Below the pieces are notes generated by a model. That model ran no database searches. It was given only the letters and a program-made list of their open reading frames with translations, and was not told the origin of the DNA. Both the position numbers and the translations under genes were made by a program. Source: a virus. From it: a DNA stretch of 64,000 bases. Location of the stretch: positions 54,099 to 118,098 of the IMG/VR virus record IMGVR_UViG_3300037493_001906; one strand, 5' to 3'. Positions 18,197 through 52,636 of this stretch are shown here, in pieces. The stretch's first letter is position 1. Every line of letters begins with the position of its first letter.

Positions 18197-19825
18197 TTAG
18201 AATGATCCACCAGTGATTGGGTTTCTCATAACAATTTTCAATACCTTAGTAGGATCTTTCACCCAAATTGCAGGCATTGTTTGAGTCATCATGACACGGT
18301 ATCCATTGAACTGACCAGAGCTTTGGAAGCCTTGTGTACGTCCCATGTAATCCATTGTACCATTTTGATACCACCATTTTAGTTGATTATCCCAAGATAA
18401 TTTTAGCATGAAGATATTATCATTACCAGTGTCAGTGATGTCAAAGATAATGAAGCTATAAGATGACAAAGGATTACCATCAATGATTGGGTTTTCAATG
18501 TCATTTGTATGCAAGTTATCAAAAGCTGGGTTAAGAACAAACTTAACATTAGCTAAGAAAGGAATAACATAACTTGTGAACGCAAATCCAAAGTTAAGAT
18601 CCATTGCACTTGTACCATTGATAGCACCAATACCAGCGTTGCTAGCAGCTTGAATAACAAGACCTGAGTTAGCAGCTTCACGTTTGATAGCCTCATTTAC
18701 AAGACGCATACCACCCATACCTGTTTGTACAATCAATTGACGTTTTGGATCTGGTCCTTGAAATTCAACCCTACCTGCGTAGAAGTTATAAATTTCAGAG
18801 CGGAACAATTCCAAGTTGAAGTTAGATTTGTTGTATACTCTTTTGAAAGAGTTATCCAACTGTTTCCAAAGACCCACAGATAAACGCATATCATCTGGAC
18901 CATCTTGCTTAATACGTCCACCATGTCCCCACATCAAGTAGGTTTCAATGTCAGTAGCAATTTTAGTCAAGTGAGCAGCTTCCATAGAAGTAAGGAAAGT
19001 TCTGGTTAAAGTACCATTACCTACTGCACGCTTCAAATAGTCTTTACCCATTTTAGAAGCAATGTCTTCAATTTTAGTGATTGAAGGATCTAGAGTTTTA
19101 TCAAAGTTTCTCCAGATTTCAGTTACAGGAACTGTACCATCTGCATTCATACCACCTTTGATCATCATGTCAGCTTTAGAGCTGATAGAATAATGTACGT
19201 GAGCTTCAGCACCACCTACAAAGTTGTAGAATTCACGGAATCCAGCTCTTGTCTGAATATCAGAAAATCTTTCACCATATTCACCTCTTGCAGAACCTTT
19301 TCTGAAAAGTTTGGTTTGTGGTTTAATGTATTTGTTATCAAGAAACTTGTAGTTATCATTGTTAACCAACTGTACTGTGTAGATGAAACCATCTCCCATA
19401 GGAAGAATATCATCAGCAGTAATGTACATCTCCACACCATTGTATTTGTCATAAGTGATAATATCACCATGTCCAAATTCACGTTTGTTGATTTTGATCT
19501 TGAAGGTTGTACCATCAATACCTTTTTGTTGATTAGTTGATTCAATGTCTTCAAGGATATAAGGAAGATCCTGGCTAACAGGGGTCTGCCATTTATACTC
19601 ACCACGGGCATTGTCTACCATGATAATGTTTTTGCCACCAAAGGATGACAATTGATACAAAGGCATTTCTACCTTTTGTGTCATAGCCCAAATATCTACT
19701 GGACCCAAATCCATGGGTTCAGAGTCTTTAAGCATGTTTACTAAGTGGTAAGAATCCACGTGTGAACTAGCATTGTAGTTCGTATCACGAAGGAGTATAC
19801 CATTGTTTAAAACTGGAGTGCTCAT
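18197..19825 (-). CDS. Major capsid protein (HK97 fold, crAss-like)
   Basis: 542 aa; DIETYLMWG...LSVGLWKQL; codon bias of a highly expressed gene; follows portal and scaffold; ends at a terminator. Confidence 0.85.
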   Translation of the reverse strand: MSTPVLNNGILLRDTNYNASSHVDSYHLVNMLKDSEPMDLGPVDIWAMTQKVEMPLYQLSSFGGKNIIMVDNARGEYKWQTPVSQDLPYILEDIESTNQQKGIDGTTFKIKINKREFGHGDIITYDKYNGVEMYITADDILPMGDGFIYTVQLVNNDNYKFLDNKYIKPQTKLFRKGSARGEYGERFSDIQTRAGFREFYNFVGGAEAHVHYSISSKADMMIKGGMNADGTVPVTEIWRNFDKTLDPSITKIEDIASKMGKDYLKRAVGNGTLTRTFLTSMEAAHLTKIATDIETYLMWGHGGRIKQDGPDDMRLSVGLWKQLDNSFKRVYNKSNFNLELFRSEIYNFYAGRVEFQGPDPKRQLIVQTGMGGMRLVNEAIKREAANSGLVIQAASNAGIGAINGTSAMDLNFGFAFTSYVIPFLANVKFVLNPAFDNLHTNDIENPIIDGNPLSSYSFIIFDITDTGNDNIFMLKLSWDNQLKWWYQNGTMDYMGRTQGFQSSGQFNGYRVMMTQTMPAIWVKDPTKVLKIVMRNPITGGSF

Positions 19826-29945: not shown

Positions 29946-30354
29946 GATGAATTATTTTAAAATTAAGTAAAATATTACCATTAGTTTGAATTTTTAAATC
30001 TGGATTAAGACTAATCTTTTTACGAGACTTACCACTCTTAACTAATAGCTTTTCTTTTTCTACTTTAATAAGTACATTTCTTATTGTTTGTGGAGATGAC
30101 TCTGGCCTTTTAGGCTGAGGCATTCCAGGTTCAGGTTTCCAGGTTTTAAGTTTTTCTTCTAATCTTTTATCTGCCATATCATGGCAAAAATCAGTTAGTT
30201 CATATTCTCCTGATTTACCTAAATGAGTTAAACAATCTAGATCCAACTCACTTAAAGTTATATTGTTTATATAACAATAACTAATGAGTTGGAATCTAAT
30301 AATATCATCTAAATCCATTTGAACCTGTTTATTTACAAGGTTTACTTTAGCCAT
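29926..30354 (-). CDS. Putative winged-helix DNA-binding protein
   Basis: LSELDLDCLT...SPQTIRNVLIKVEKEKLLVK. Confidence 0.45.
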   Translation of the reverse strand: MAKVNLVNKQVQMDLDDIIRFQLISYCYINNITLSELDLDCLTHLGKSGEYELTDFCHDMADKRLEEKLKTWKPEPGMPQPKRPESSPQTIRNVLIKVEKEKLLVKSGKSRKKISLNPDLKIQTNGNILLNFKIIHLDTHEA

Positions 30355-30815: not shown

Positions 30816-31511
30816 TTATTTTAATAAATCCCATCCAGTAAATGGAGAAGCCCATCTTGATTTACCTGTATATCTATAGTAACCACTTACTCCAGCTATA
30901 AGCAATCCAGGATATACTGGAGCAATATAGTCAGTTTGATAACCAAGAGCTGCATCAGCAGGTACTTTAACTGAATTCCAAGCATCTGCATAAGTTGTTC
31001 CAGCAGCATATACACCTAGTAAACCACCTACAGCATTAAATAAATTTTGATTAGAAGAAAATACACCTATTCTTATTAAGCTTTCTGTTTGCTCATTTGT
31101 TGTATATGGAGGATTTCTTAAAAAAGCAACACCTACTGTAGCTGTAATATTATAAGCTCTACTTATTCCAGTTTGTAATTCATTCCACTCTTCTATTGTA
31201 GTAGCAGCAAATCCAGGAAGTACTTCATCATGTATACCTCTATCAGTTGCATATGCAGATAATTGCTGATTTGAAACATATACAGGAGGTGTATTTGCCA
31301 TATCACCATTCCATATATGATTGTTATTAGCAATAGCTAATTGTTTAGCATGTATGCTAGACAAAAAATCATGTGCATCTACAAGTGGATTTTTATATAA
31401 TGTTGCTTTTTTAGCAGGTAATCTAAATGTACTTTTTGTTGACCAGGATGTACCTGCCCAATTATTTGCAATTACACCAGCTGCTGGTACGAGTTTATCT
31501 TGAGCTCCCAT
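30816..31511 (-). CDS. Hypothetical protein (possibly fibre/receptor-associated)
   Basis: ORF track, 231 aa. Confidence 0.55.
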   Translation of the reverse strand: MGAQDKLVPAAGVIANNWAGTSWSTKSTFRLPAKKATLYKNPLVDAHDFLSSIHAKQLAIANNNHIWNGDMANTPPVYVSNQQLSAYATDRGIHDEVLPGFAATTIEEWNELQTGISRAYNITATVGVAFLRNPPYTTNEQTESLIRIGVFSSNQNLFNAVGGLLGVYAAGTTYADAWNSVKVPADAALGYQTDYIAPVYPGLLIAGVSGYYRYTGKSRWASPFTGWDLLK

Positions 31512-37938: not shown

Positions 37939-38106
37939 GTTTTTTTAAAGGAACACTTCTTTCAAGCCAAGGGTACAGCACATTGTAATCAAAGACTTCT
38001 TACTGTGTCTTGTTGCTTAATAGATAGACTCTCAAAATCCTCTCTCCTGTATTATCTTTGTGGTCTCATATATTATTATTATATTTACTCCTATATATAT
38101 AGTACA

Positions 38107-38708: not shown

Positions 38709-39185
38709 ATGAAAATCAAATCAACAATGGGTAATGGCGTAGGCTATACCAACAAGAATGGCAATGATGTATTTCCTTATGCCATAGTAAGTGCAACTCC
38801 TTCAGAGTTAGCGTTATACAAGAAGATTACACCAAAGGGAGTGTATAAGGAAACTGCAGAAGGACATCCCTTATTCTTTGCGTCAGAGTCTTACGGTGAC
38901 ACTGCTACTTTGCAATTCAACTTTGCCAAGACTAATGTCTATTGTGTAGAGAAGGGTCAAAGAAAGGCAGTCATTAGTCAGATGAAGGCTTCAGGCATTG
39001 ATGTAAACAAGTCTGCTCAGGCAGTGTTGTCACAAATGTTTAGTGGCAAGGCATTTATGTCAGAAAGTACTGAGTCTGAGGCTACTGAAGAGTCTGAGAC
39101 AAAGGTAGAGCCTAAAGCAATGGTAGTGGTTAAGAGAACTGCAACCAAAAAGGTTTCTGCCAAAGGGATTGGTAAGGTAATGTAA
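38709..39185 (+). CDS. Early hypothetical protein; paralogous to 37442-37888
   Basis: ORF track. Confidence 0.7.
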   Translation: MKIKSTMGNGVGYTNKNGNDVFPYAIVSATPSELALYKKITPKGVYKETAEGHPLFFASESYGDTATLQFNFAKTNVYCVEKGQRKAVISQMKASGIDVNKSAQAVLSQMFSGKAFMSESTESEATEESETKVEPKAMVVVKRTATKKVSAKGIGKVM

Positions 39186-39198
39186 TCCCAAGCAATAT

Positions 39199-39231
39199 AA
39201 CAAGGCTAATCTTCATAGGTTAGCCTTGTTT
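39199..39231 (+). terminator. Intrinsic terminator similar in sequence to 37896
   Basis: AACAAGGCTAATCT-TCAT-AGGTTAGCCTTGTT. Confidence 0.8.
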
Positions 39232-39369
39232 ATGTTGTGACAAAAATTATTTTTACTGAAGACTTGAACTAAAAGTTTAAGTAACACGCTCTAACTAACT
39301 GATAATGAGAGAGTTAGTTAGTGAGAAACAAACTCTCTCAAAAACAAACCAATTCAAAAAACCACTCAA

Positions 39370-46315: not shown

Positions 46316-47152
46316 ATGAAAAACATACACATATTACCAACAGATAAACCAAGTAGGTTAATTCTTCAAGGTTCTGAATTAGTTCTATCTAAATATATGG
46401 AAGTGAATGAAGGATTTTCAGAGTTTAACCAAAACATCTACATCACATCTGATGTAGAAATTAAAGAAGGAGATTGGATATTAAATCCTACAAATGAAGT
46501 TCAAAATTGTATTGGTTTAGAAAAAGGAATAGGTACAGATAATATTTGTTGGGTTAAAGTTAAAGAAACTACAACATTACAACAAATACTAAATTCTCAA
46601 AAACTTATCATAACAACAGACAAAGACCTAATCAAAGATGGTGTACAAGCTATCAGTAATGAGTTCTTGCAATGGTTCGTTCAGAATCCAAGTTGTGAAG
46701 AGGTTGAGATAGAATCTTGGCAAACAAAAGGAGACTGGGATTTAGATTACAAAATAATCATTCCAAACGAAGAACCTAAATACCCTATTGGAGGTTATGC
46801 TCCAGGTTATTATGGATGCACTTGTGTAACTTGTAAAACAGAATTTATGGGAGATAAAAGAGCAGTTCAATGTGAGCCTTGTGCTATTGAAATGACAAAA
46901 GAAGAACCTAAACAAGAAACACTTGAAGAAGCTGCTGAAAGATGGAATGAAAAACAAACTAAATTAGAGTTTGGTAAACCACATAATGCTCCAAATAGAA
47001 TTAAAGCATTTATTGCAGGTGCTAAATTGCAACAAGAGAGAATGTATAGTGAGGAAGAAGTTTACAATATTTTAGTACAACATACTATTGAATTATTTAA
47101 AGGACAACCTTGTACATTAGATGAATTTTTTGAACAATTTAAAAAGAAATAA
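46316..47152 (+). CDS. Mosaic hypothetical protein with an embedded zinc ribbon
   Basis: MKNIHILPTDKPSRL...IYITSD; GGYAPG..CTCVTC...QCEPC; EPKQETLEEAAE; MYSEEEV. Confidence 0.65.
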   Translation: MKNIHILPTDKPSRLILQGSELVLSKYMEVNEGFSEFNQNIYITSDVEIKEGDWILNPTNEVQNCIGLEKGIGTDNICWVKVKETTTLQQILNSQKLIITTDKDLIKDGVQAISNEFLQWFVQNPSCEEVEIESWQTKGDWDLDYKIIIPNEEPKYPIGGYAPGYYGCTCVTCKTEFMGDKRAVQCEPCAIEMTKEEPKQETLEEAAERWNEKQTKLEFGKPHNAPNRIKAFIAGAKLQQERMYSEEEVYNILVQHTIELFKGQPCTLDEFFEQFKKK

Positions 47153-47153
47153 C

Positions 47154-47378
47154 ATGAAAAGATTACTATTATTTTTTGGGAACTTTTTAGTTTCAATGAT
47201 TTTTGGTTTTGATATTATGAATTACTATATGTTTGGTGGTATTAATATAATTAACAATGATGTAAATAGATTTTTTATAATGTGGTTAGGTTTTATAGTA
47301 AGCACAATATCAATTTGTTGGTTTATGTTTGACCACTTTAAGTATAAAGAACAATTTAAAAAGGAGGACAAACAATGA
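47154..47378 (+). CDS. 2-TM membrane protein ending EDKQ
   Basis: ORF track, trimmed to MKRLL. Confidence 0.55.
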   Translation: MKRLLLFFGNFLVSMIFGFDIMNYYMFGGINIINNDVNRFFIMWLGFIVSTISICWFMFDHFKYKEQFKKEDKQ

Positions 47379-47518
47379 GATTATTAGAATACTTAAATGT
47401 AAGTATGTATAGATTGAAAGAGTTTTTTCTATATACTATTTGTGGAATAGATTTTTATAGGAATTATTCAAGATTTTATTGGGGTAATATTTTTAATAAA
47501 AAGGATGACAAACAATGA
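47375..47518 (+). CDS. 47-aa peptide ending DDKQ
   Basis: ATGA coupling on both sides. Confidence 0.5.
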   Translation: MRLLEYLNVSMYRLKEFFLYTICGIDFYRNYSRFYWGNIFNKKDDKQ

Positions 47519-47757
47519 AACAAACAGCAGTAGAATGGTTGCAAAAGCAACTAAAAGATGTAAAGTATAATCCATTAGAAAAAAATGGTTATTCAATTGC
47601 AGAAGAAAGATTATTTAACCAAGCCAAAGAAATGGAGAAAGAGCAGATAATTGATGCTTTTGGTGTTGGTTGTCAAGTTGAATCAACAAGACTAATTGGT
47701 TATCAAGGTATGGCAAAACAATACTACAACGAAACCTTTAATAAAGACAAGCAATGA
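47515..47757 (+). CDS. KQTAVEWL-family hypothetical protein
   Basis: MKQTAVEWL...AKEMEKEQIIDAF...YYNETF. Confidence 0.65.
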   Translation: MKQTAVEWLQKQLKDVKYNPLEKNGYSIAEERLFNQAKEMEKEQIIDAFGVGCQVESTRLIGYQGMAKQYYNETFNKDKQ

Positions 47758-48308
47758 TTGAAGTTATATGTGGTCCTATGTTCTCAGGTAAGACTGAAGA
47801 ACTTATTAGGAGACTTAAGAGAGTAGCAATATCAGGGCAAACTTATATAGTTATTAAGCCTAAGATTGCTAGTAGATATGATGCAGAAGATACAGGTATA
47901 TCCACACATGATGAAACTAATTCATTGAATGCTGTGGCAGTAGAAGATTGTATTGCAGATATTTATTATGCTACTGAAGAATACAATGTAGTTGCTATTG
48001 ACGAGGCCCAATTCTTTAGTGAGAAGCTCTATCAAGTAGTAATGATGCTAGCAGATAGTGGGAAAAGAATAATAATCTCAGGTCTTGATACAGACTTTAG
48101 AAGAAAACCTTTTCCTACTATAGCCAACCTAATGTCTGTTGCAGATAAGGTAGACAAGTTACACTCTATATGTATGGGGTGTAAGGAAGATGCTATCTAC
48201 TCTCTCAGAACTTCTAATGAAACAGATCTTATGGTTATAGGAAACCAGGATACTTATTTACCCCTATGTAGAAAATGTTATAATAATAAAAAAGATGGAA
48301 CTAAGTGA
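47754..48308 (+). CDS. tdk: Thymidine kinase
   Basis: GPMFSGKTEEL, IDEAQFF, GLDTDFRRKPF, CMGC...LCRKC. Confidence 0.95.
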   Translation: MIEVICGPMFSGKTEELIRRLKRVAISGQTYIVIKPKIASRYDAEDTGISTHDETNSLNAVAVEDCIADIYYATEEYNVVAIDEAQFFSEKLYQVVMMLADSGKRIIISGLDTDFRRKPFPTIANLMSVADKVDKLHSICMGCKEDAIYSLRTSNETDLMVIGNQDTYLPLCRKCYNNKKDGTK

Positions 48309-48552
48309 AATAGAACAATTGGCCAGGGAACATTACCCTCACCACTTTGATTATCAACAGGTATGGGTCAATGCTTTTACTAAAGCCTTAGAACTATGTG
48401 CTGATAAAGAATTTTCTGTAGCTGATTTGAATATGGCTATTAATTTAGCAAGACATATTAATCATACTGTATGGGAACTACCACAGAATACAATAATTGA
48501 AAGATTAATTGAACTTAAAACAAATAACAATGACAATCCAAGGACACCTTAG
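48295..48552 (+). CDS. Hypothetical protein
   Basis: ORF track. Confidence 0.55.
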   Translation: MELSEIEQLAREHYPHHFDYQQVWVNAFTKALELCADKEFSVADLNMAINLARHINHTVWELPQNTIIERLIELKTNNNDNPRTP

Positions 48553-48769
48553 AAAAGAAAAAGATGGTTGGTATATTCAGTATAGGTCAGAAGAAGCAGG
48601 ACAAGACTATACTTGGTATGATAGATTACCTATACAAGACCAAAAAGATTTTGGTGATGAATGGATTGGTGTAAAGGCATTAGCAGAAACAATTGATGTA
48701 CCTAAATTAGATAATGGTGCAACTAATCAGTATATTAGATATGCTAAAATTATAAAACTAATCCTATGA
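48530..48769 (+). CDS. Hypothetical protein; likely start MTIQGHL
   Basis: ORF track, trimmed. Confidence 0.55.
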   Translation: MTIQGHLRKEKDGWYIQYRSEEAGQDYTWYDRLPIQDQKDFGDEWIGVKALAETIDVPKLDNGATNQYIRYAKIIKLIL

Positions 48770-49149
48770 AAACTATACAAGAACATTATAAAAAAGAAAT
48801 TGAAGAGTTTAGAAATGAAGTAACAAGAGTTGTGCATGATTCCTTCATGGAATTAATGGAGCAACCACCTGTATTATTTGGTATTAAAGCTGACAGTGCT
48901 CCTAATGAAATATTTGTATTAGATGGACTAGATAGCTTACCTGAAATGGAAAACAACACACTCATGTTTGAAGCTATTAAAGAGTTTAATAAGAAAACTA
49001 AACCTATTGTAATAGCTTTTGCAAGTGAAGGTTATATGAGAGACTTTGATCCTCTATTAGATGAGGATGGAGAGTTGGAGGCGAAAACCTCCACTTCTAA
49101 TATGCACCCAATTTTTCAACAAGCACTAAAACCATTTGGAATAAGATAA
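48766..49149 (+). CDS. Hypothetical protein, probably 3'-truncated by an insertion
   Basis: Composition changes near 49080; start-less C-terminal frame at 49858-50076. Confidence 0.5.
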   Translation: MKTIQEHYKKEIEEFRNEVTRVVHDSFMELMEQPPVLFGIKADSAPNEIFVLDGLDSLPEMENNTLMFEAIKEFNKKTKPIVIAFASEGYMRDFDPLLDEDGELEAKTSTSNMHPIFQQALKPFGIR

Positions 49150-49204
49150 TATGGATTGGATAAAATTACCTAAACCACTATTACTAATTTAAAAAACAAA
49201 AAAT

Positions 49205-49504
49205 ATGAACGCAAAAGAAAAAGCAAAAGAACTAATAGAAAAGTATTTAAAAGTTGACATTGAAATAGGTGGTCTTCTAAGTCTGCAATGTCGTCAACAC
49301 GATGGTTATCTTACAATGAAAATTCACGATGCCAAACAATGTGCTTTGATTGCAGTTGAAGAAATATTGCATTGTGAAGCCACAGAGCCATCCGATACCG
49401 ATTGGGATGATTGTGGTGCAACTGCTCAATATTATTGGCCACAAAAGAAAATCGATGCAGGTAAATTTTGGGGCGATGTCAAGTCGGAGTTGCAGTCTTT
49501 GTAA
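49205..49504 (+). CDS. Hypothetical protein (KEKAKEL...AKQCALIAVEEIL family), cassette-like
   Basis: CpG-rich relative to the genome; stop followed by TTGCGTATAAC. Confidence 0.65.
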   Translation: MNAKEKAKELIEKYLKVDIEIGGLLSLQCRQHDGYLTMKIHDAKQCALIAVEEILHCEATEPSDTDWDDCGATAQYYWPQKKIDAGKFWGDVKSELQSL

Positions 49505-49572
49505 GGTTGCGTATAACGGTTTTTTGTATCAGAAATTAAAACAAACAAAATGACACTAACAGATTTAAAACA

Positions 49573-49761
49573 ATGAAAACATTAGCAGATGGATTTGAAG
49601 TATCGGCAAGAAGTTATTACTACTTACTTGATTGGAACGAAGTAAACGAATGGAAATATATTACTCACGCCTTTCTGAAAACAAGATTGTGTGATTTGAC
49701 AAAGGATGAATATAAGAAGTTATTTGACCATGCTACAACGTCTGAAATGAACGGATGGTAG
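49573..49761 (+). CDS. Cassette-like hypothetical protein
   Basis: Stop followed directly by an attC-like site. Confidence 0.6.
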   Translation: MKTLADGFEVSARSYYYLLDWNEVNEWKYITHAFLKTRLCDLTKDEYKKLFDHATTSEMNGW

Positions 49762-49763
49762 CC

Positions 49764-49857
49764 TTGCACATAACGTTTTGCAGATAAGCGAAGGCACAAA
49801 TAGCGTGGGCATTGTGCGGTTGGATTTGGGCTTTTGCTTAGCTGCTGTTAGCAGTAG
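49764..49857 (+). mobile_element. attC-like recombination site (integron-cassette type)
   Basis: TGCACATAAC...GCAG.TAAGCGAAG..CACAAAT...ATTGTG...TTTTGCTTA.CTGC.GTTAGCAG imperfect inverted repeat. Confidence 0.55.
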
Positions 49858-50076
49858 TGCCTTTCTCGAATTAAAATAAAACTTCTGGGCGGAGTTTATT
49901 GGGAAATAGATAGAGATGAAGATGATAAGATTATAGGTATAACCCTGCTTCAAGATAAAGCATGGAGAACAAAAGGAGAAACTACAGGAGAGATGTCTAA
50001 ACTATTAACTAAAAATTATAGCTTGATGACTTCTAAAGTAGAAGACTATTTAGATAAAAAATTTAATATGAACTAA
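49858..50076 (+). pseudogene. Start-less open frame, likely the detached C-terminus of 48766
   Basis: ...IKLLGGVYWEIDRDEDDKIIGITLLQDKAWRTKGETTGEMSKLLTKNY...MN*; no ATG until late. Confidence 0.45.
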
Positions 50077-50077
50077 C

Positions 50078-50260
50078 ATGGAAATAAGAATCATTATATG
50101 GATATTCATAATATACATATTAATATCTCAATGCCTAGCTGTTTATTATTTATATCTATTTGCTCAGCACCATGGGTTTTGGACAACGCTCCTAATTGGT
50201 CCTATAGTATCTGAACTCAAAGGATTAATATGGATTATTAACCAACCTCATTTTAATTAA
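50078..50260 (+). CDS. Small membrane protein
   Basis: Hydrophobic. Confidence 0.55.
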   Translation: MEIRIIIWIFIIYILISQCLAVYYLYLFAQHHGFWTTLLIGPIVSELKGLIWIINQPHFN

Positions 50261-50262
50261 TT

Positions 50263-51345
50263 ATGACAAGAGAACAAATTCAAAGTGAAGCTCTACAAAG
50301 TTTACTATCATCCACTCATGGTACAATTGCTATGTCAATGGGTTCTGGTAAAACTCTTGTAGGTCTCAAACATATGGATGCTAACTACACAGACTATGCT
50401 AGATTCCTTGTTGTTGCACCTAAAATATCCATCTTCCAAGAATGGATAGATCAGGCTAATAAGTTTAACCTATCTCATTTAATAGAGCATATTAAGTTTA
50501 CTACTTACTTATCTCTATATAAACAAGATCTTGACTATGATGTTGTGTACTTAGACGAGTGCCATTCGCTAAAATTCTCTCACAAGGATTGGCTTGACCA
50601 ATACAAGGAAAAGATTGTTGGCCTCACGGGAACTCCTCCTAAGTACGCATCATCAGAGAAAGGTAAAATGGTTAATGACTATTGTCCTGTAATTTATAAT
50701 TATTCCACAGATTCTGCAGTAGAAGACAACATCCTCAATGATTATAGAATAAAGGTACACATGCTCAGCCTGGGTACTAAATCAAATATTCCTGTAAATA
50801 CAAGAGGTAAAGGGTTTATGACTTCAGAATACAATAATTATAATTATTGGACCAATAGAATCTTAGATGCTAAATCTGCTAAGGAAACTCAAATTACTAG
50901 AGTAATGAGAATGAAAGCCTTGCAAGGATTTAAATCTAAAGAAGAACTTGCTAAGACATTACTCATTAATACTAATGAGAAGATAATTGTATTTGCTAAT
51001 ACTATGGAACAAGCAGATAGCTTTGGTATTCCTAGTTATCACAGCAAAAATACATTATCTGAAGAAAATCTCCGTCTATTTAAATCAGGAGCTATTAAAA
51101 AGATGTCTTGTGTACTGCAATTAAATGAAGGTGTTAATATTCCTAATCTTAAAGAAGGAATAATAATGCACGCATATGGTAATGAACGTAAGTCAAGCCA
51201 GCGTATTGGCAGGCTTCTTAGGTTAAATCCTAATGAAACAGCTGTAATACATATATTATGCTATAAAAATACAGTAGATGAGCAATGGGTTAACACAGCT
51301 CTAGAAGATCTTGATCAAACTAAAATTAAATACTTAAATTACTAA
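50263..51345 (+). CDS. Superfamily 2 helicase
   Basis: MGSGKT, DECH, GLTGTP, LNEGVNIP, QRIGRLLR. Confidence 0.9.
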   Translation: MTREQIQSEALQSLLSSTHGTIAMSMGSGKTLVGLKHMDANYTDYARFLVVAPKISIFQEWIDQANKFNLSHLIEHIKFTTYLSLYKQDLDYDVVYLDECHSLKFSHKDWLDQYKEKIVGLTGTPPKYASSEKGKMVNDYCPVIYNYSTDSAVEDNILNDYRIKVHMLSLGTKSNIPVNTRGKGFMTSEYNNYNYWTNRILDAKSAKETQITRVMRMKALQGFKSKEELAKTLLINTNEKIIVFANTMEQADSFGIPSYHSKNTLSEENLRLFKSGAIKKMSCVLQLNEGVNIPNLKEGIIMHAYGNERKSSQRIGRLLRLNPNETAVIHILCYKNTVDEQWVNTALEDLDQTKIKYLNY

Positions 51346-51349
51346 ATAA

Positions 51350-51721
51350 ATGAAAACAAAAAAAGCAGTTAAAAAGGTAGCAAAAAAGGGAACAATCTCT
51401 AAAGTAACTAAACAAGTTAAATCTGTAGCAAATCCATTTGAAATATTAGAGGATGTGTCATTAGTAAGGACTAGTGCACTAACAGATCCTAATATTGATA
51501 AGCTTATTGAACAAATAAATAAACTTGAAGTAGGTAACAAGAACCAATCAATTAATGTTCCTACTACACTGTATCCTCTTAAGAAAGATGCTAACAATTT
51601 AATTAGAATAGTTAAATATAAGTTTAAAGAAGAAGGATTAGGTATTATTATATCTGCAAAAACTATTTTATCAAATGATAAAAAAGTGTATCTTGGCACC
51701 AGAATCTTTAGAATAAACTAA
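51350..51721 (+). CDS. Basic hypothetical (possible DNA-binding) protein
   Basis: ORF track. Confidence 0.6.
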   Translation: MKTKKAVKKVAKKGTISKVTKQVKSVANPFEILEDVSLVRTSALTDPNIDKLIEQINKLEVGNKNQSINVPTTLYPLKKDANNLIRIVKYKFKEEGLGIIISAKTILSNDKKVYLGTRIFRIN

Positions 51722-52041
51722 TGGCAACAACAGCATTACAAATAGAGAAAGATGGTAAGGTAGAGAGAATCTATTTTATGACAACAGCAAAAGAAAATGG
51801 AGAAGTTGATGTAGATATTTTTATAGCTGATGATGATTGGATACCCCAAGGTACTCCTTCTATTGGCTATGCACCTATGGGTGAAGAACAATATCATACA
51901 GAACTGAGGGTATTGGCTATTGAAAAAAATCAATATGTGCCATACCAATCCACTAATCCAGAATGGAATCCAGGATATAATCCTGAAGACTATGATTATG
52001 ACAAACTCTTAGAAGATACAGATTTAAATGAGTCCCTTTGA
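51721..52041 (+). CDS. Acidic hypothetical protein
   Basis: ORF track. Confidence 0.6.
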   Translation: MATTALQIEKDGKVERIYFMTTAKENGEVDVDIFIADDDWIPQGTPSIGYAPMGEEQYHTELRVLAIEKNQYVPYQSTNPEWNPGYNPEDYDYDKLLEDTDLNESL

Positions 52042-52327
52042 TGTAATTTGTGTTAATGATTCTAACAGACCTGATGGAATACCCACAAGTAAGTGGGTAA
52101 AGAAAGGAGAAATCTATACAGTTATTTTAGTAGGAAGAATGCTCATGCAAAATGGTTGCATGGGCTTCAAACTTAAACAACTTGATATAGATGATTGTTT
52201 TCCTTATCAATTCTTCAGTGCTGAAAGATTCAGAATGCTACAAGATGCAGATGTGTGGACAGAATCAATCTTAAATAAGATTGTTGAAGAAGCAGAAGAC
52301 GAATTAGTTAAAATTTCATTAAAGTAG
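52028..52327 (+). CDS. Hypothetical protein
   Basis: ORF track. Confidence 0.6.
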   Translation: MSPFDVICVNDSNRPDGIPTSKWVKKGEIYTVILVGRMLMQNGCMGFKLKQLDIDDCFPYQFFSAERFRMLQDADVWTESILNKIVEEAEDELVKISLK

Positions 52328-52328
52328 T

Positions 52329-52391
52329 CCTTGTCCAGGTATGGCTTACTGACAAAACTAGTATTTTGTGTAAGTCATGCCTAGGTCAAGG
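52329..52391. other. 63-nt intergenic hairpin
   Basis: CCTTG..AGGTATGGCTTAC..ACAAAA / TTTTGT.GTAAGTCATGCCT..CAAGG. Confidence 0.65.
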
Positions 52392-52402
52392 CAATTATAT
52401 AT

Positions 52403-52636
52403 ATGCAAAAACAAACTCCACTTCAAGAACTAATAGAATTTATGTCACATAATGTCTATAGAGGTAATGCAATTGTATATGGTAAAGTATTAGAGTTACT
52501 TGAAAAAGAACAAGAAGAATTATCTGAAGCTTTTAACAATGGTAGACACAATGCTAAATATGTACTTACTACATCACCAATAAATGGGATTGAGTATTAT
52601 AACAAAACTTATGGAAAATTAAATGTTGACATCTGA
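52403..52636 (+). CDS. KQTAVEWL-family paralogue
   Basis: KQTPLQELIE...LEKEQEEL...YYNKTY. Confidence 0.6.
   Translation: MQKQTPLQELIEFMSHNVYRGNAIVYGKVLELLEKEQEELSEAFNNGRHNAKYVLTTSPINGIEYYNKTYGKLNVDI

Follow-up and report, generated by a model that had tools for sequence, protein, structure and literature searches.

A probable integron-like cassette fragment of Bacteroidota type within a broken gene of a CpG-depleted phage

We examined a 64,000-nt window of the 118-kb virus record IMGVR_UViG_3300037493_001906; all coordinates below are those of the window unless a contig is named. At 49075-49894 a phage gene is interrupted by an 820-nt block that holds small open reading frames (ORFs) followed by sites resembling attC, the site type of integron cassettes. 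Such sites consist of a TAAC...GTTA core around a hairpin, with an R'' box before the core and an R' box after it. The features of the locus, all on the plus strand, are as follows.

48766-49149, +: chimeric ORF127; native codons 1-103 (to 49074) joined in frame to an imported 24-residue tail, LEAKTSTSNMHPIFQQALKPFGIR (49075-49149)
49075-49894, +: foreign, CpG-rich block of 820 nt; a mosaic of four pieces, each known elsewhere in another context
49205-49504, +: cassette ORF99, 99 residues; phrog_21441 (phage-only family, function unassigned), PHROG E-value 2.6e-11
49505-49517, +: half site; R'' box GGTTGCGTATAAC, followed by neither hairpin nor R' box; probable crossover between TAA and C
49573-49761, +: cassette ORF62, 62 residues, function unassigned; cassette from about 49554, lacking its 5' hairpin and R' box
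49758-49863, +: complete attC-like site; R'' box CCTTGCACATAAC, bulge GTTTT, stem of about 16 bp with G.T wobbles, 25-nt loop, T, R' box GTTAGCAGTAGTG
49851-49894, +: start of the next cassette, 44 nt, truncated at the right junction; with the right arm of the hairpin it encodes ...AVSSSAFLELK and a stop
49895-50077, +: 3' remnant of the broken native 193-residue gene, 60 codons, no start codon

A CpG-rich block inserted into a phage gene

The phage genome is strongly depleted in CpG, and the block at 49075-49894 is CpG-rich by contrast. Positions 49071-49880 contain 23 CpG dinucleotides where 2.4 would be expected; the ratio of observed to expected is 0.91 in this interval and 0.117 in the remainder of the window. 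Judged by composition, the block is foreign in origin.

The metagenome contig L083 comes from a close relative of the window phage and provides an empty-site reference. It is collinear with the window at 47754-49074 (95.6% nucleotide identity) and again at 49895-52581 (93.3%), and it carries the undisrupted 193-residue gene. The block is therefore an insertion that breaks a gene, and it stands in place of 91 nt of native sequence. The two halves of that gene can still be recognised: residues 1-100 of ORF127 are 97%, 86% and 58% identical to P0002, P0003 and P0004, which are proteins of 193-197 residues, and the last 59 residues of P0002 align with the frame at 49895-50077. The block begins and ends within the native gene, at least 44 nt from any TAAC/GTTA core, and at both junctions there is a microhomology of about 2 nt with donor-type sequences. 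Pfam and PHROG searches returned no function for ORF127, ORF62 or the 3' remnant.

Within the block, each of the two small ORFs is followed by TTGCNNATAAC. The sequence TTGCGTATAAC at 49507-49517 begins 2 nt past the TAA stop of ORF99 (TAA-GG-TTGCGTATAAC), and TTGCACATAAC at 49764-49774 begins 2 nt past the TAG stop of ORF62 (TAG-CC-TTGCACATAAC). A first-pass annotation of this DNA had described two ORFs in a CpG-richer segment, each with a TTGC..ATAAC-type motif behind it, of which the first was a left half only and the second opened a full imperfect inverted repeat. Its coordinates and the contrast in CpG content were confirmed; the first motif lacks a right arm and reaches only 19.6 bits with the covariance model R1 introduced below.

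ORF99 has homologues in 29 viral loci, and in 16 of these GG/GT-TTGCNNATAAC is found 5-6 nt past the stop codon. Its relatives in the Atlas are confined to viruses; homologues also occur on contigs of Bacteroidota metagenome-assembled genomes (MAGs) labelled Flavobacterium, Sediminibacterium, Saprospiraceae and Hanamia. The ORF99 cassette begins at about 49177, and comparison of the upstream leader showed that the usual 5' hairpin and R' box are missing. At its other end, homology to L016 (about 95% at the nucleotide level) stops directly after ATAACG. ORF62 has a homologue in L045 with 92% amino acid identity and a 90-nt site ahead of it; here homology stops at CCTTGCACAT-AC. The R'' box of ORF62 is complementary at 11 of 13 positions to the R' box of this L045 homologue, the sole box pair that can be compared in the window. 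At the right-hand end, positions 49844-49896 are 100% identical to L009:3030-3082, the head of a cassette encoding a ParB-like protein of 246 residues. Hairpins are thus absent at two of the three cassette junctions in the block. No donor contig arranged in this way turned up in exact-match scans with the linkers at 49150-49176 and 49518-49542, and blastn and tblastn searches of the region and of ORF99 against GenBank phages gave no useful match.

The ORF99 family is itself a mosaic. Its members share a conserved N-terminus (MNAKEKAKELIEKY), a middle segment (AKQCALIAVEEIL) and the C-terminus VKSELQSL, between which segments have been swapped or deleted (alignment A5). The last 30 nt of the gene are near-invariant, even where the proteins are only 35% identical. 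The imported tail of ORF127 forms the conserved C-terminus of otherwise unrelated ORFs of 81-82 residues in L001-L003. The DNA encoding it (L001:4001-4090, L002:1638-1730, L003:4001-4090) differs mostly at wobble positions, so that selection acts on the tail peptide itself. It contains QQALKPF, which is reminiscent of a clamp-binding QxxLxxF motif.

Given that the gene is split, a group I intron or a homing insertion was considered; there was no ribozyme match, the block is a mosaic of cassette pieces, and this candidate was dropped. An Rfam scan of 48000-51000 returned nothing relevant. Elsewhere in the window, a second CpG-rich patch at 18500-19300 (12 CpG in 800 nt, at a genome observed/expected ratio of about 0.12) may be another imported segment. 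Finally, collinearity with L083 begins at the start of the thymidine kinase gene (47754). Small ORFs upstream of this point (ending ...DKQ and a stop) have no counterpart in L083, as judged by comparing 47121-47757 with L083:1-571, and a second module boundary is therefore placed at 47754.

The attC-like site and its family

The core of the complete site spans 49771-49850 (TAAC at 49771-49774, GTTA at 49847-49850), and its imperfect inverted repeat ends GTTAGCAG. The covariance model R1, trained on 23 other sites with the window site excluded, scores 63.5 bits on 49758-49863 (E-value 6.5e-10, model positions 1-153); the reverse strand scores 4.4 bits. R1 found no further site in the whole 118-kb phage and none in the loci from relatives of the window phage (L033-L044). 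With one full and one half site, the window falls below the threshold of at least two attC sites for a cluster of attC sites lacking an integron integrase (CALIN). The 11-mer, allowing one mismatch at most, is not enriched in the window (25 occurrences, 23.2 expected).

A hairpin nearly identical to that of the window, here called H1, is present at L004:4612-4691 and L046:796-874, with other flanks. Loops of the short-class hairpins share GCGTTGGATTG (in the window, GCGGTTGGATTTG) despite differing stems, as at window 49814-49826, L009:3925-3940 and L004:3500-3515.

In related contigs the sites have the form TAAC-G, four nucleotides, stem, loop, stem, T and GTTA, and occur in arrays of 3-6. 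A loose regular expression for such hairpins was abandoned since its 196 matches, set against about 160 in shuffled sequences, were mostly background. The stricter version used in its place found 29 sites on the plus strand and one on the minus strand, compared to 0-2 in shuffles. In all there are about 45 hairpin sites, nearly all on one strand (0-2 in shuffles). R1 recovers 50 same-strand sites in related loci, the window site included, and 50 of 51 lie on the sense strand. Site lengths form a short class of 48-91 nt and a long class of 117-129 nt. Loops of long-class sites enclose an A-rich leader, an ATG and about ten codons of the next ORF (L002:2514-5425, L005:4274-5049, L025:3084-4396, L016:131-1249). 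The preceding ORF often ends with the core TAA as its stop codon, so that the cassettes are exact stop-to-stop units.

The secondary structure of these sites is conserved. RNAalifold predicts 23 base pairs for 23 long sites (alignment A6), 17 of them with compensatory changes. Cores are invariant in the 23 phage sites and in 37 host sites described below, the host cores often reading CAAC/GTTG. The family has a one-sided bulge of 4-5 nt and a 1x1 mismatch; the pair of extrahelical bases typical of a canonical L box was not recognised as such. In the phage sites, G.T oppositions outnumber A.C oppositions by 35 to 9, which indicates that the ORF-sense strand is the one that folds. That the bottom strand folds, as implied by a check suggested in the first-pass annotation, is not supported. 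The canonical attC polarity, with the site 3' of its cargo and the bottom strand folding, is not seen in the window or in the phage arrays, where R1 matches the ORF-sense strand.

In the arrays, the R' box of one site (9 nt after GTTA) and the R'' box of the following site (9 nt before TAAC) are complementary at 6.8 of 9 positions on average; most pairs reach 8 of 9, and a T.G wobble is fixed among them. Boxes that belong to one and the same site match at 2.8/9 and random pairs at 3.0/9 (p = 2e-7). Complementary boxes across an ORF are an integron-cassette signature, because both boxes form one site in the excised circle. Homology between related loci breaks at TAAC and, in the long class, the loop contains the start of the next ORF; together these point to a crossover between TAA and C and to a hairpin that belongs to the downstream ORF. 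The cassette unit runs from just after ...TAA, beginning with the C, through the imperfect hairpin, a GTTA-NNN box and the ORF to its own N'N'N'-TAA box. The complementarity of the boxes on either side of an ORF is the trace expected of a unit that had earlier been excised as a circle.

Arrays and an associated recombinase in Flavobacteriaceae

R1 matches are present in 112 of 151 Flavobacteriaceae genomes. Five genomes were searched more fully and contain co-oriented clusters, for instance 18 sites within 73 kb in G153. In all six arrays inspected for this (G011, G153, G155, G107, G105 and G131), homologous tyrosine recombinases are encoded at the same end and in the same orientation as the cassette ORFs. 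In one of them, L077:5463-11261 (G011:C93, a Flavobacterium MAG), the order is uvrB, a 138-residue ORF, a 347-residue Xer/IntI-like recombinase and at least three cassettes up to the contig end; behind each cassette lies an R1 site, on the opposite strand.

The array-head recombinases are 39-48% identical to each other. They score 211-232 bits on NF040815 (XerA/integron integrase; cut-off, 220). With TIGR02249, the model for IntI, they reach only 187-203 bits, below its cut-off of 265. The TIGR02249 alignment falls into two stretches that skip model positions 180-237, which correspond to the IntI-specific insertion. The best relatives of known structure are XerA, a XerC-like protein and VchIntIA. 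No protein above the TIGR02249 cut-off was found in five host-like MAGs. That a classical IntI is the enzyme, as the IntI assay suggested in the first-pass annotation would imply, is not supported. The annotation's statement that the window lacks an integrase extends to the whole 118-kb record, which encodes no tyrosine recombinase at all.

On the chromosomes, R1 matches the strand opposite to the array ORFs, the canonical polarity of integrons. Across 37 independent host sites, 92.9% of the alignment cells at paired positions can pair, compared to 72.1% in shuffles, and compensatory changes are present in 16 of 23 pairs. Covariation scores 0.538, versus 0.154 in shuffles, with none of 500 shuffles reaching 0.538 and slid controls staying at or below 0.14. 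Two G.U pairs are retained in 37 of 37 host sites. Box complementarity in the host arrays is 5.6/9, as opposed to 2.6/9 within a site (p = 9e-5). A structure kept on the strand that is absent from mRNA favours a role in single-stranded DNA over one in RNA. On this evidence (the TAAC/GTTA cores, the compensatory changes, the apparent preferential folding of one strand and the complementary, cassette-specific R boxes), the sites are attC-like cassette boundaries, as had been claimed for the window. Homologous sites are associated with variable ORFs in the arrays, as that reading implied.

One member of this family has been described before, as a phage attC site. Qi et al. 2023 (PMC9892861) predicted attC clusters (CALINs) without integrase in virulent phages, including Polaribacter phage P12002L, took the sites as classical attC and assayed them with IntI1; of six sites, P12002L_attC1 was the one for which no recombinants were verified. 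The primer sequence of P12002L_attC1 corresponds to an R1 match at NC_028924 29995-30069(-), beside methyltransferase genes. Going by this match, the published site is a member of the Bacteroidota family, and its lack of verified IntI1 recombinants fits a system with an enzyme of its own. The P12002L genome (L085, NC_028924) contains R1-type sites at 29995-30069, 30896-30968, 38022-38103, 38866-38949 and 39112-39258, all on the minus strand. They lie between methyltransferase and Mom-like genes, on the gene strand. Almost no integrons were reported in Bacteroidetes with IntegronFinder 2.0, and in the literature we came across no account of such arrays in Flavobacteriaceae.

Origin of the block and relation to known systems

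We propose that the phage acquired the block recently, as a piece of an integron-like array of Bacteroidota type that has decayed in part and was joined illegitimately into a phage gene, and would put the probability of this at roughly 0.7. In the mechanism we envisage, one DNA strand would fold into the hairpin, and the Xer/IntI-like tyrosine recombinase at the head of Flavobacteriaceae arrays would cut between TAA and C and exchange cassettes. The fragment in the phage, comprising ORF99, ORF62, the half site and the full site, was joined into the native 193-residue gene by illegitimate recombination, leaving an N-terminal fusion protein and a startless 3' remnant. We infer that the source of the fragment was a Flavobacterium-type phage. 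As read from the junctions, which lie outside the sites and have about 2 nt of microhomology, and from the intact gene in the relative, the block arose by illegitimate recombination and not through the cassette machinery. The full site could do no more than offer a host recombinase a place to land in the course of an infection.

The first-pass annotation had gone further and suggested that phages of this group capture or exchange Bacteroidota attC-like cassettes with a host or co-infecting tyrosine recombinase; on this view, the enzyme would be of integron type and the segment would have been inserted by that route. It is true that the sites are genuine members of the attC-like family, that elsewhere in phage contigs 3-6 sites form arrays in which cassettes have been swapped, and that the likely hosts encode an array-linked recombinase. 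However, active capture is disfavoured by the empty-site comparison, which places both ends of the block inside the native gene, at least 44 nt from the cores and with 2 nt or so of microhomology; moreover, the 118-kb genome has a single full site, L033-L044 have none, and two of the three cassette junctions are devoid of hairpins. We consider this explanation unlikely, and nothing shows use of the cassette system by this phage group.

A different question is whether the elements act in RNA, as terminators, processing signals or translational controls. Promoter-early stem-loop (PeSL) cassettes of T4-type phages offer a precedent: they are small early ORFs in hyperplastic regions with conserved intergenic stem-loops, shuffled as modules, and the PeSLs are regulatory sequences exchanged by homologous recombination. 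The sense-strand location of 50 of 51 phage sites, the frequent use of the core TAA as a stop codon, and the long loops that hold the leader and start of the next ORF would suit such a role, as would the G.T pairs, which are acceptable in RNA. The conserved boxes of 13-15 nt could support recombination, and the flanks of H1 vary on both sides. Against this, the bacterial arrays keep the same asymmetric structure and the invariant G.T pairs antisense to the ORFs, and hence not in mRNA. An RNA role also gives no reason for complementary cassette-specific boxes, or for a tyrosine recombinase at the head of six out of six arrays, and neither these boxes nor an antisense location beside a recombinase is a known feature of PeSLs. 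We regard RNA elements shuffled by homologous recombination between boxes as very unlikely to be the explanation.

The hairpins could also be dispersed transposable or repetitive palindromes that insert after TAAC without any cassette logic, such as miniature inverted-repeat transposable elements, repetitive extragenic palindromes of the REP/RAYT type or IS200/IS605-like ends. Host genomes do contain many copies, and IS200/IS605 ends consist of an imperfect subterminal hairpin beside a fixed tetranucleotide, which counts as a likeness. But the copies are clustered and co-oriented, alternate with single ORFs, and are flanked by boxes that pair across each ORF; no HUH transposase was noticed in the arrays examined, although no systematic search for one was made. 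This makes the palindrome explanation highly improbable. Scarcely credible, to our mind, is a chimera of metagenome assembly, which the metagenomic source of the record and the abrupt change in composition might bring to mind: the phage gene that breaks off at one flank is taken up again at the other, the reading frame is kept across the left junction, and an assembly error would as a rule arise at a repeat common to two genomes and stay with the second, whereas here the first resumes after 820 nt.

Several observations weigh against the array-fragment interpretation that we prefer. Folding of the window hairpin as a single sequence is no better than that of shuffles (folded as RNA, the top strand gives z = -0.55; folded as DNA, the bottom strand gives z = +0.71); the significance of the site derives from comparison, that is from the motif after homologous ORFs in 16 loci and from the R1 score, and not from the sequence alone. 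Three distinct sequences adjoin H1 on its right and three on its left, so exchange must also take place on the side of GTTA or through homologous recombination within conserved boxes. In phages, the folding strand also carries the cargo, the loops contain start codons, and the phage sites may have an additional role at the RNA level. No recombinase was found in the 11 viral records searched, which are mostly fragments. The recombinase is linked to the sites by association only; no recombination event was observed.

How does this family compare with known mobile systems? The pdif modules of Acinetobacter plasmids link Xer-family recombinases to gene modules flanked by inverted sites. This tie between an Xer-family recombinase and discrete gene modules is shared with the arrays described here; the pdif sites are short double-stranded XerC/XerD sites, and are not known to have a long folded hairpin or to form long co-oriented arrays. 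The closest resemblance is to integrons, in particular sedentary chromosomal ones of the 'inverted integrase' type (for example, that of Treponema), and CALINs. Common features are the ...AAC/GTT... cores, conservation of structure over sequence, apparent folding of one strand, a probable crossover between AA and C, R boxes that are complementary across each cassette and specific to it, and co-oriented arrays of single promoter-less ORFs headed by a host recombinase that points with the cassettes. The family differs from integrons in its Xer/XerA-like recombinase, which stays below the IntI cut-off (187-203 vs 265 bits) and lacks the IntI-specific insertion, and in the one-sided 4-5-nt bulge, 1x1 mismatch and fixed G.T wobbles that apparently replace the classic extrahelical bases. 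It also differs in the phage cargo, which is on the folding strand with the hairpin ahead of the ORF, and in its host phylum, which has been surveyed as almost free of integrons. The CALINs of virulent phages (PMC9892861) likewise comprise attC-type sites in lytic phages without integrase, and P12002L_attC1 is a member of the family; the window, with its one full site, is unlike them in remaining under the two-site threshold.

Taken together, these comparisons incline us, if only slightly, towards an undescribed integron variant common to Bacteroidota and their phages, with a folded-site architecture of its own and an Xer-like recombinase that lacks the IntI-defining domain. In phages, the cargo, leader and start codon would be on the folding strand, and array fragments would leak illegitimately into unrelated, CpG-depleted large phages, feeding gene flow between distant lineages. 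Prevailing views hold that integrons are near-absent from Bacteroidota and that folded attC sites cannot be handled without the extra domain of IntI. Activity of this family would contradict both, given the matches in 112 of 151 Flavobacteriaceae genomes, the Xer-like array heads and the occurrence in lytic phages as well, and phages of these hosts would gain a cassette pool of small early genes. It follows from the window that a lone attC-like site in a phage is no evidence that the phage uses the system: here cassettes appear to have entered an unrelated phage through illegitimate recombination alone, destroying a gene that was resident there, and to have decayed afterwards.

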